Source of the DNA: a virus
Length of the DNA stretch: 64,000 nucleotides
IMG/VR virus record: IMGVR_UViG_3300021139_002062
Strand: one strand, 5' to 3'
Position numbers and translations under genes: made by a program. Every line of letters begins with the position of its first letter. The first letter of the stretch is position 1. This document shows, in pieces, positions 1 through 224 of this stretch. The notes beneath the pieces are model-generated. The model made no database searches, was not told the origin of the DNA, and was given only the letters and a program-made list of their open reading frames with translations.

Positions 1-120
1 GTAGTACTAGTAGTATGGGTATATTCACTCTTTTTGTTTTTTATTTTATTAAAAAAAAAAAAAAAAAAAAAAAAAAAACTAGAATAAGGGGTACTACTAG
101 TACTACTGGTACACGACTTT
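1..120. repeat. Copy A of a repeated intergenic element (GTA-type 9-mer iterons, T-rich block, A28 tract)
   Basis: 1-120 matches 57457-57572 with one substitution and A28 (51-78) versus A24. The arms GTAGTACTAGTAGTA (1-15) and TACTACTAGTACTAC (92-106) are exact reverse complements. Confidence 0.9.
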
Positions 121-145
121 GGGATTCGCTTTAATTATCATGGAG

Positions 146-216
146 TTACAGCAACAATGTTTCACGGAATGTTTCACGGTTTTTTAACTACTGGTACAAA
201 TTTCGTACAAATTTTT
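146..216 (+). promoter_or_regulatory. Direct-repeat iterons upstream of the primase gene (ATGTTTCACGG x2, GTACAAATTT x2)
   Basis: TTACAGCAACAATGTTTCACGGAATGTTTCACGG (146-179) recurs at 57598-57630 with 2 changes. GGTACAAATTTCGTACAAATTT (193-216) has a diverged relative at 57634-57662. Confidence 0.5.
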
Positions 217-224
217 CATAAATC

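Follow-up and report, generated by a model that had tools for sequence, protein, structure and literature searches.

The window (the whole 64,000-nt stretch of viral DNA that was analysed) opens with an element of inverted 9-bp iterons around an A/T-only core, followed by further repeats and by the gene of a primase-helicase (table 1). The start of this gene was placed at the ATG at position 258 and not at the start of the 786-aa ORF. Pfam searches detected PriCT_2, D5_N and DUF5906 domains, and the N-terminus matched the NrS-1 primase and the 7OLA primase. The latter entry, deposited as 'DNA primase', was the best PDB sequence match (E = 5e-33, strongest in the primase domain), and we take it to be the SaPI5 primase-helicase (PriRep). 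The C-terminal domain alone gave no match to the PDB by sequence. However, the AF2 model predicted a winged helix at residues ~640-775 (pLDDT 75), and in a fold search of this domain the best matches were RFX winged-helix DNA-binding domains (TM 0.77-0.84). The nearest primase of a cultured phage was at most 35% identical.

Table 1. Positions of the two copies of the element, the neighbouring repeats and the primase-helicase gene in the window.
Feature	Position	Strand	Remarks
Copy A, left iteron arm	1..21	+	truncated by window start; L069 supplies missing bases
Copy A, left-arm units	(GTACCA)GTA, then GTACTAGTA 4-12, GTATGGGTA 13-21	+	
Copy A, asymmetric inner box TGGGTATATTCACTC	16..30	+	marks core orientation; found in most relatives
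Copy A, A/T-only core	31..78	+	T-rich block 31-50, then A28 51-78; proposed unwinding/helicase-loading zone
Copy A, right inner box CTAGAATA and right iteron arm	79..112	+	
Copy A, right-arm units	AAGGGGTAC 86-94, TACTAGTAC 95-103, TACTGGTAC 104-112		inverted relative to left arm
Module TTACAGCAACA + ATGTTTCACGG x2	146..179	+	repeat family D13, 97% identical between copies
Second iteron cluster: AACTACTGGTAC, then GTACAAATTT x2	186..214	+	just 5' of primase; iteron match at 186-197
TTTTTCATAAATCAT	212..226	+	degenerate form of family promoter-like motif TTTTTGCATTAGTAT
Primase-helicase gene	258..2585	+	AEP primase, PriCT_2, D5_N, SF3 helicase (DUF5906), C-terminal winged helix (predicted)
Copy B, left iteron arm: GTATGGGTA GTACTAGTA GTATGGGTA	57451..57477	+	
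Copy B, core	57478..57537	+	inner box, T-rich block, A24 (57507-57530)
Copy B, right iteron arm: AAGGGGTAC TACTGGTAC TACTGGTAC	57538..57564	+	
Copy B, downstream modules: TTACAGCAATA + ATGTTTCACGG/ATGTTTCACG, then GGGGTACAAATTTGTATGGGTACAAA	57598..57659	+	extra iteron-like units

Structure of the element and its two copies

Each arm consists of three 9-bp units, which are GTACCAGTA GTACTAGTA GTATGGGTA on the left and, read as the reverse complement, GTACCAGTA GTACTAGTA GTACCCCTT on the right. The initial annotation had placed GTAGTACTAGTAGTA at positions 1-15, ahead of the T-rich block (31-50) and an uninterrupted A28 run (51-78), and all three were recovered there. It had also described a pair of inverted 15-mers. 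The second of these, TACTACTAGTACTAC at 92-106, is indeed the exact reverse complement of 1-15, but the repeat is really 22 nt long: when the bases supplied by L069, a contig from the same sample, are added to the left of the window (..TTTGTACCA, continuing into GTAGTAC..), a perfect inverted repeat of 22 nt with 91-113 results. Copy A thus has a stem of 22 nt and a loop of 76 nt. The true start of the left arm lies 6-7 nt to the left of window base 1 (TGTACCA), which supplies the left boundary that the initial annotation had left undefined. That homology begins exactly with base 1 is due to a break of the assembly at a repeat and homopolymer. The homopolymer is 28 nt long as assembled, and L001, L002 and L069 all break in or beside the run. 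The combination of a repeat and a homopolymer of at least 24 nt causes assemblies of these phages to break at this locus.

The core is symmetric in composition only and is not palindromic in sequence. A hairpin of the T-rich block with the A28 run had been proposed; some pairing is possible, but it is imperfect, with a mismatch at every non-T. Folding of the element as single-stranded DNA gave -28.2 kcal/mol, compared with -9.5 +/- 2.3 for shuffled sequences (z = -8.1). The inner box has the consensus GGGT(A/C)TA..(C)AC across the phage family. The smaller repeats listed earlier were also present, namely the tandem 9-mers GTACTACTA GTACTACTG GTAC at 91-112 and the direct repeats of ATGTTTCACGG (157-167 and 169-179) and GTACAAATTT (194-203 and 205-214).

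The module at 146..179, which has a TTTCACAATGTGAAA palindrome as its counterpart in many relatives, is probably a binding site for a second factor. The iteron cluster at 186..214 is a candidate autoregulatory site, and comparable extra sets of iterons, in direct orientation, separate the element from the primase ATG in L080, L084, L085, L116 and L120. In many relatives the promoter-like motif TTTTTGCATTAGTAT (repeat family D3) lies directly 5' of the primase ATG; from this resemblance we infer that 212..226 may be a promoter-like motif as well.

The reported recurrence of the arrangement at about 57457-57662 proved to be a genuine second copy with its own left arm (copy B, 57451-57659). Positions 57457-57576 differ from 1-120 by one substitution and by A24 in place of A28. 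Past 57576 the likeness becomes modular, with 97% identity between 57598-57630 and 146-178 and another GGTACAAATTT at 57636-57646. L069 is 100% identical to window positions 59309-64000 and then continues into window positions 1-51, by which the genome was closed to a 66,165-bp circle. On this circle copy B lies 8.7 kb upstream of copy A, and the two copies flank the early-gene module. Copy B is located between the divergent terminase and early operons, directly upstream of the terminase operon, and copy A between the last early gene and the primase. A phage-encoded sigma factor lies at the end of the early module, and the phage PolA gene at 19462-21414. The cumulative GC skew had a local minimum at ~57-60 kb, i.e. 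at copy B, which is confounded with gene strand. A scan of genome collections returned a single MAG contig, from a betaproteobacterium bin, which is a weak host hint only.

The iteron 12-mer GTACYAGTAGTA (at most one mismatch) occurred eight times in the window, always within the two copies, against an expectation of 0.35. Likewise, A runs of at least 15 nt were found only at the two copies (0.02 expected). Scans of both copies for sigma-70 promoters and for intrinsic terminators gave results not above chance, and no U-tract follows the stem. No cluster of DnaA boxes (at most one mismatch) was detected near either copy in the window, only far sub-threshold matches to miRNA hairpins were obtained from Rfam, and no target-site duplication was visible at the flanks of either copy.

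Conservation in related phages

A first scan of IMG/VR with the iteron pattern returned mostly unrelated coding repeats, including giant-virus contigs, and few true relatives. A strict scan, which required at least 15 matches in an inverted window of 18 nt and a spacer of 30-115 nt with at least 70% A/T, detected the element upstream of the primase in no fewer than 52 of 69 related loci. The distance was within 450 bp in 44 of these, and none of 69 control stretches (388 kb from the same loci) contained the element. It lies 1-3.4 kb away from the primase in eight relatives, and in L132/134/136/137 it ends only 25-36 nt before the primase ATG. The carriers form a large family of ~66-kb uncultured freshwater phages. 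No match to cultured phages was obtained by megablast with window positions 1-8000, and a search within 4 kb of the primase revealed no similar A/T-cored inverted repeat in the distant cultured relatives 9NA and Isfahan. The copy-A junction pattern had no match in metagenome contigs; a looser pattern detected only relatives, at most ~89% identical over the element and 65-88% in the flanks, and no contig of the same phage.

Comparison of the window with 46 curated relatives revealed three inverted 9-bp units per arm around a core of 65-75 bp, mostly with more than 80% A/T. The core was T-rich and then A-rich in 46 of 46 elements, and relatives from other samples had homopolymers of 21-32 nt in the corresponding position. 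Over 20 distinct arm sequences were observed, each retaining an inverted repeat of 14-35 nt. Exceptions were L176 and L180, the arms of which are non-complementary when compared by eye, which would not be predicted by a pure stem-loop model. In L071 and L120 the units differ inside an arm, yet the arms are mirror-symmetric, which would not be predicted by a pure model of repeated binding sites. In L024/L195/L207/L208, in L075 and in L080-82 the inner box lies on the opposite side and the core is inverted relative to the flanks. DnaA boxes adjoin the element in some relatives, with four perfect boxes in tandem in L073/L074 and one box in L165/L168.

Where two copies were present, they always occupied the same two syntenic positions, with a spacing of ~5.8 kb in L189, ~8.7 kb in L195 and ~9.4 kb in L072/L153. 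Both copies are internal to several long contigs, e.g. the 66.5-kb contig of L072/L153. The early modules are very different in size and content between relatives.

Iteron specificity and the primase-helicase

The iterons are phage-specific and matched between left and right arms (GTACYAGTA, GTCAYAGTA, GACAYAGAA, GTCAGGGTT, GTCACACTT, TCCAYAGTA, GCAAGGGTG and GCGGGGGT). They are also shared by the two copies of a genome, with best 18-mer matches of 18, 18, 18, 18, 18 and 16, compared with a median of 14 between genomes. In L089/L189 the arms are partly different between the two copies of one genome.

When the similarity of the iterons was compared with the identity of the primase-helicases, the partial correlation was ~0 along the protein except in the C-terminal 110 residues, where it peaked at 0.32. 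For the C-terminal domain it was modest (0.26-0.38 across tests, with relatedness partly controlled) and was reached in 0 of 2000 permutations. A small conserved protein encoded just upstream was considered as an alternative iteron binder and rejected, as it tracks the iterons much less than the C-terminal domain does (0.11 versus 0.38 in the same 24 genomes). The C-terminal domain is identical in L136 and L137, but the iterons are not (GCACAGGTT versus GCSGGGGGT).

A candidate replication origin, its alternatives and known systems

Taken together, the element is probably (at about 0.6) one of two copies of the phage replication origin, or an origin with a cis-acting partner site, recognised by the adjacent primase-helicase. 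This reading of the sequences is based on the architecture conserved beside the same gene, on the co-variation of the iterons with the C-terminal winged helix of the putative initiator, on the homology of this protein to initiators of the SaPI PriRep and pRN1 type, whose origins share the layout, and on the DnaA boxes in two relatives. The same comparative evidence lends support to the earlier suggestion of an origin upstream of the primase-helicase gene.

In the proposed mechanism, the winged helix would bind the iterons, and the inverted arms would then place two oligomers face to face across the core. The A/T core may melt, either as a duplex or aided by extrusion of the arms as a stem, and two SF3 hexamers would be loaded and travel outward 3'->5'. 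Since the core is always T-rich and then A-rich, each hexamer would have a T-rich strand to start from. Priming would fall to the AEP domain, and bidirectional extension to the phage PolA. Autoregulation could come from the extra iterons and TTTCAC repeats at 146-214, which lie across the putative promoter region of the primase, and copy B may be a second origin or an enhancer site like P4 crr.

Several observations count against an origin. Copy B abuts the terminase genes, the element is distant from the primase in eight relatives, and it is absent from the region searched in 9NA and Isfahan. Moreover, iterons and C-terminal domains are mismatched in L136/L137, the copies are partly unlike in L089/L189, and the window has no DnaA cluster.

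The position of both copies at the boundaries of temporal modules would also suit a transcription element, i.e. a terminator, insulator or operator that splits the late, early and middle units and has no role in replication. A phage-encoded sigma factor closes the early module, promoter-like motifs and operator-like repeats adjoin the element, and a strong hairpin is predicted for the strand. However, the stem has no U-tract, the promoter and terminator scans did not exceed chance, and no terminator is required between divergent operons such as those around copy B. In L132/134/136/137 transcription of the primase must cross the element or begin inside it. A transcription element, which we consider unlikely, would also fail to account for the universal order of T before A in the core, for the homopolymers of 21-32 nt, for the link to the C-terminal domain of the primase and for the DnaA boxes. 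The location of copy B immediately 5' of the terminase operon would instead suit a role in packaging, with the copies as physical ends (e.g. of an 8.7-kb direct terminal repeat with the early genes) or as a pac site. As with a long terminal repeat, the early module is enclosed by the two copies (e.g. L195), and many contigs start or end inside the element (the window, L001, L002, L069, L070, L124 and L200). The ends are not at one base, however, but in the left arm, at the first A, among the last As, behind the A-run or in the right arm, as expected when assembly fails at a repeat and homopolymer and not from a fixed terminus. In addition, long contigs (66.5 kb, L072/L153) carry both copies internally, a pac site needs one copy, and nothing ties it to the primase gene or its C-terminal domain. 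A packaging or terminus signal is very doubtful, and the physical genome end considered in the initial annotation is made less likely by the heterogeneous contig ends and the internal copies in relatives.

At least three lineages (L024/L195/L207/L208, L075 and L080-82) have the core inverted relative to its flanks, which raises the question of a recombination site, at which the arms would flip the core, the direct copies would excise or exchange the early cassette, and symmetry would be kept by gene conversion and not by selection on an origin. The unit-by-unit mirror symmetry of arms with unlike units (L071, L120), the concerted evolution of the copies and the great variation of the early modules in size and content are in agreement with this. 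On the other hand, the part of the ORFs scanned yielded no recombinase, invertase or protelomerase, and endonuclease VII was the only related match in it. Recombination at inverted repeats is an expected by-product of any palindromic origin and hence compatible with origin function; a site serving recombination in place of replication has little probability. A combined reading, in which the copies are a flip-flopping palindromic origin pair and in addition delimit an early-gene cassette exchanged by recombination, or serve as processing sites for a long terminal repeat, is rather improbable. If it were true, one cis element would serve replication initiation, module shuffling and genome-end formation, and the arm symmetry would be kept by hairpin-templated copying and not by protein binding alone. 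The initial annotation had also allowed for a MITE-like mobile element, which would agree with the size of the element (~115 bp), its inverted ends of 21-35 nt and its presence twice per genome. With only two copies at fixed syntenic positions, no further copy in the window, arms that change with the phage lineage and match between copies, and no visible target-site duplication at either copy, such an element is extremely improbable.

A replication origin of this kind would most likely belong to an already known type and not to a new one. Its interest lies in a candidate origin and a candidate code of initiator-DNA recognition for a large, abundant family of ~66-kb freshwater phages without a cultured representative. 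The dozens of natural pairs of iterons and winged helices are a data set on how SF3 primase-helicases read DNA, and they also inform the diversification of replicon specificity among co-occurring phages.

The SaPI5 initiator is presumably an SF3 helicase fused to a primase. SaPI Reps bind iterons via a C-terminal winged helix, and in the SaPI origin two or more iterons flank each side of an A/T-rich centre, in opposite directions (PMC9371898). The phage system shares an SF3 helicase initiator with a C-terminal winged helix (predicted here from the model), inverted iterons on both sides of an A/T-rich centre (here three per arm), and iterons that vary between elements, which in SaPI are matched to the cognate protein. 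Unlike the SaPI origin, which is downstream of the gene, the element lies upstream, and it is composed of 9-bp tandem units that form near-perfect arms of 21-35 bp in place of scattered 5-6-mers. Further differences are the polar core (T-rich then A-rich, often with a homopolymer of 21-32 nt), the presence of two copies ~9 kb apart, and the carrier, not a satellite but a lytic-type phage of 66 kb that encodes its own PolA.

Phage P4 requires a second cis site, crr, which is several kb from ori and has the same repeats, an arrangement that copies A and B would resemble. Its repeats are octamers that are not known to form a long palindrome around a polar A/T core. The likeness to ori and crr consists of two sites 5.8-9.4 kb apart with shared iterons. 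The P4 alpha protein combines a primase and an SF3 helicase with a winged helix and binds the origin repeats, and its primase domain is of the Toprim/DnaG type (PMC4234260). The primase domain encoded in the window is in contrast of the AEP type, as indicated by the NrS-1 and 7OLA matches and PriCT_2. In SV40 and papillomaviruses, the SF3 initiators (large T antigen and E1) assemble into a pair of hexamers on inverted binding sites that adjoin an A/T tract. These are eukaryotic viruses, however, with an unrelated origin-binding domain, a much shorter spacing of the inverted sites and no known primase fusion. Large T antigen has been cited as the model of how SF3 helicases melt an origin (PMC4234260). 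A telomere-resolution site of the N15 telRL type would comprise a near-perfect palindrome as the target of a protelomerase encoded in the genome. The core of the present element is not palindromic in sequence, and no protelomerase was detected in the part of the ORFs scanned.

The plasmid pRN1 (ORF904) and the Bordetella phages BIP-1/BPP-1 have a stem-loop of ~100 nt beside the replication gene, with a 21-nt stem and a loop of ~58 nt, in which the sequence is variable and the symmetry is conserved and required (PMC4234260). Proteins of the pRN1 type consist of an AEP prim-pol, a helical or PriCT_2 domain and an SF3 helicase, together with a winged helix, BIP-1 being the PriCT_2 variant, and pRN1 was reported to be without iterons (PMC4234260). 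The protein of the window has the same set of domains (the winged helix being predicted), and beside its gene is a 22-nt stem with a 76-nt loop, the symmetry of which is kept in relatives while the sequence is not, with the exceptions of L176 and L180. In contrast to pRN1, the stem is built of tandem iterons, which are also present outside it, and in contrast to both pRN1 and BIP-1 the loop is A/T-only and polar and there are two copies. The element joins the iterons of SaPI with the large stem-loop of pRN1 and BIP-1, and could help to decide whether these represent one mechanism.

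Anatomy of the element and the circular map

Re-reading of the sequence bore out the layout proposed in the initial annotation for positions 1-224, with inverted arms of 9-bp units (iterons) around a T-rich block and A-run (see table), and its recurrence near 57.5 kb. In the first 120 bp, this second copy (copy B) differs from the one at the window start (copy A) by one A/G change and by A24 in place of A28; beyond this, the two have only discrete modules in common. The iteron 12-mer was matched eight times in the 64-kb window, compared with 0.35 expected, and no iterons or comparable homopolymers were found in the 64 kb outside the two copies (A runs of at least 15 are expected 0.02 times). 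The element strand also folds much more strongly than shuffled sequences (z = -8.1).

Features of the genome (window coordinates unless a contig is named)
Feature	Position	Strand	Remarks
Copy A left arm	1-21		GTA GTACTAGTA GTATGGGTA
Copy A inner box	16-30		TGGGTATATTCACTC
Copy A T-rich block	31-50		
Copy A A28 run	51-78		
Copy A right inner segment	79-87		CTAGAATAA
Copy A inverted right arm	86-112		AAGGGGTAC TACTAGTAC TACTGGTAC
Repeat downstream of copy A	157-179		ATGTTTCACGG x2
Repeat downstream of copy A	194-214		GTACAAATTT x2
Primase-helicase gene start	258	+	ATG; 775-aa product on record
Replication module	258-21414	+	
Structural genes	21415-57389	-	begin with terminase beside copy B
Copy B	57451-57659		
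Early module	58375 to end of circle		small genes
C5 cytosine DNA methyltransferase gene	63648-64000, onward in L069 4340-5722		runs off window end
Phage sigma factor	L069 5735-6343		regions 1.2, 2 and 3, no region 4
GGGCG-N8-12-TTTTTTGCATTAGT motif	28553, 35645, 47470, 51440, 54640, 57376	-	
GGGCG-N8-12-TTTTTTGCATTAGT motif	11840	+	

The left boundary, which could not be placed in the initial annotation, was recovered from L069, a sister contig from the same Trout Bog sample. This contig equals window 59309-64000 at 100% identity, runs 2,165 bp further, up to a point within copy A, and there matches window 1-51. Since L069 overlaps both window ends, the genome maps as a 66,165-bp circle, 2,165 bp longer than the window, with copy B 8,709 bp upstream of copy A. 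Upstream of base 1 the left arm truly begins ..TTTGTACCA, and with these bases the inverted repeat of copy A is a perfect 22 nt. The window's contig starts at the exact point where the differing left flanks of the two copies converge. Other assemblies break inside the A-run (L001), after it (L002), at its first A (L069) or in the right arm (L070). That the break bases differ between contigs is the signature of an assembly failure at a repeat plus homopolymer, which would account for the homology from base 1, and not of a fixed physical end.

The replication module encodes the primase-helicase, an SNF2 helicase, a DUF2800 nuclease, endonuclease VII, an Enc34-type SSB, class II RNR, RNA ligase and PolA, and the early module ends with the C5 methylase and the sigma factor. 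According to this layout, copies A and B bracket the early module.

Conservation and the link to the primase-helicase

About 950 homologues of the primase-helicase were found in metagenomes, the complete contigs being typically 63-68 kb, and no cultured relative exceeded 35% identity. Among 80 IMG/VR loci inspected, the architecture recurs many times upstream of the gene, in the order of two to three 9-bp units in tandem, the GGGT(A/C)TA.. box, a T-rich and then an A-rich block, and two to three inverted units. A strict scan detected the element in 52 of 69 loci (in 44 of these at most 450 bp from the start codon) and gave no hit in 388 kb of control DNA taken from those loci; the element can be recognised by eye in most loci that the scan missed. 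The T-then-A polarity of the core was seen in 46/46 curated elements, and independent samples show homopolymers of 21-32 nt in the same position. A copy B ahead of the terminase operon is likewise a trait of the family.

The unit sequence varies between phages, even those with primases 76-88% identical, while left and right arms stay matched (for example GTACYAGTA, GTCAYAGTA, GACAYAGAA, TCCAYAGTA, GTCAGGGTT, GTCACACTT, GCAAGGGTG and GCGGGGGT). Both copies of one genome have iterons in common, with best 18-mer matches of 18, 18, 18, 18, 18 and 16, compared with a between-genome median of 14.

The true start of the primase-helicase gene is the ATG at 258, since the recorded product has 775 aa. 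The protein comprises an N-terminal AEP primase, PriCT_2, D5_N and an SF3 helicase, and its top PDB sequence match is 7OLA, deposited as 'DNA primase', which we take to be the SaPI5 fusion protein. Residues 640-775 were modelled as a winged helix (pLDDT 75), the best fold matches being RFX DNA-binding domains. When iteron similarity was compared with protein identity in sliding windows across 46 genomes, with overall divergence controlled for, the partial correlation was about 0 except in the last 110 residues; it peaked at 0.32 at residues 737-765, the predicted beta-hairpin wing. In a permutation test, 0 of 2000 permutations attained the observed value. The conserved small protein just upstream of copy A gave 0.11, versus 0.38 for the primase-helicase C-terminus in the same 24 genomes. 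Between the loci L136 and L137, the primase C-terminal domain is identical, yet the iterons upstream of the primase differ (GCACAGGTT versus GCSGGGGGT), so that simple one-protein/one-iteron matching falls short as an explanation. The association is moderate, not decisive.

Other signals in the genome

The stretch from copy B to the first early gene (58375) holds two dense arrays at 57780-58100, one of five GCACCA-N4-TGGTGC palindromes and one of AGTGAGTACTCACTAAC-type units. Both occur at the same place in the relatives L189 (4240-4420), L156, L161 and L170, and are probably operator arrays of an early regulatory switch. Palindromes of the form TAGGGTAAACCC(C)TA are repeated within the early module (58343-60361; repeat families D15, D17 and D20). 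The conserved motif GGGCG-N8-12-TTTTTTGCATTAGT is found 5-20 nt upstream of late-operon start codons and of tRNA-Trp, and TTTTTGCATTAGTATA directly precedes the primase in relatives. Together with the phage-encoded sigma factor lacking region 4, this suggests that the motifs are probably promoters dependent on that factor. Eight copies of TTTAAAGAAAGCGAGTGAAAAATGA at small-gene junctions (4347-8239) are a conserved motif for ribosome binding or translational coupling, with stop and start overlapping (ATGA).

An Acb2/Tad1 hairpin domain was detected (Pfam E = 2e-14) in a small protein at 5410-5616, a possible sponge of cyclic-nucleotide signals in immunity. The tail-fibre genes contain long 9-nt-periodic repeats coding for collagen-like Gly-X-Y (37701-37808 and 44028-44582). 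The sole genome-collection match, L191 (CAIPQU010000110.1), is a contig in an uncultured betaproteobacterium MAG bin that starts at the primase gene; its binning is a weak hint at a betaproteobacterial host.

Function and comparison with known origins

The origin favoured by the initial annotation for copy A is supported by the conserved architecture, the phage-specific iterons, the link to the C-terminal domain and the likeness to SaPI and pRN1, and we put its probability at roughly 0.6. A physical terminus or pac site would account for the placement of copy B, beside the terminase and with the early module bracketed, but contig ends are heterogeneous and both copies are internal in long contigs, which also speaks against the genome end once considered for the window start. 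Fixed synteny excludes the other early alternative, a MITE-like element, as do the co-evolution of the arms with the genome and the lack of any further copies. That the element acts as a terminator or insulator is unlikely, since in four relatives (L132, L134, L136 and L137) 25-36 nt separate its end from the primase ATG, copy B sits between divergent operons, and scans revealed no terminator features.

As to whether the arms of the proposed origin act as a stem or as duplex iterons, the observations point in both directions. L071 and L120 have units that differ within an arm but arms that correspond to each other unit for unit, and L089/L189 carry two copies in one genome with partly different arms, each internally symmetric; these cases would favour mirror symmetry as such. 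The non-complementary unit variants in the arms of L176 and L180, extra units in direct orientation outside the palindrome and the imperfect pairing of the T/A core would tell against a stem being obligatory. At least three lineages (L024, L195, L207 and L208; L075; L080-L082) have the core turned round with respect to its neighbouring genes, with the window as reference. Such flipping indicates recombination between the inverted arms in evolution, which could homogenise them.

In the proposed mechanism, winged helices would bind the inverted arms and set two oligomers across the A/T core, which would melt, and two SF3 hexamers would move outward. SF3 helicases translocate 3'->5', according to two reports (PMC9371898, PMC4234260). 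As the core is always T-rich and then A-rich, each hexamer would start on a T-rich strand; the AEP domain would then prime and the phage PolA extend. Side support was seen in relatives, where four tandem perfect DnaA boxes (GTTATCCACAG x4) abut the element (L073/L074, ~3730-3775) or copy B has one perfect box next to it (L165/L168, ~2985); none was found near the window's own copies A and B. Cumulative GC skew has a local minimum at copy B, which is also side support, confounded by gene strand.

As described for SaPIs, Reps are self-loading SF3 helicases whose C-terminal winged helix binds iterons, and each side of the A/T-rich centre of the origin carries two or more iterons, oriented opposite to those on the other side (PMC9371898). 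Plasmid pRN1 requires a stem-loop of ~100 nt (21-nt stem, 58-nt loop) in which symmetry, not sequence, matters, and phage BIP-1 has a similar one beside an AEP/PriCT_2/SF3/winged-helix replication gene (PMC4234260). The window element matches both descriptions at once, but differs from these systems in lying upstream of the gene, in its strict 9-bp tandem units, in its polar, homopolymer-rich core and in being present in duplicate. The two-site layout of P4, ori and crr, resembles copies A and B, although the P4 primase is of the Toprim type, unlike the AEP primase of the window's protein. The proposed origin is a new member of an already known kind, in an uncultured phage family and with some unusual variations.
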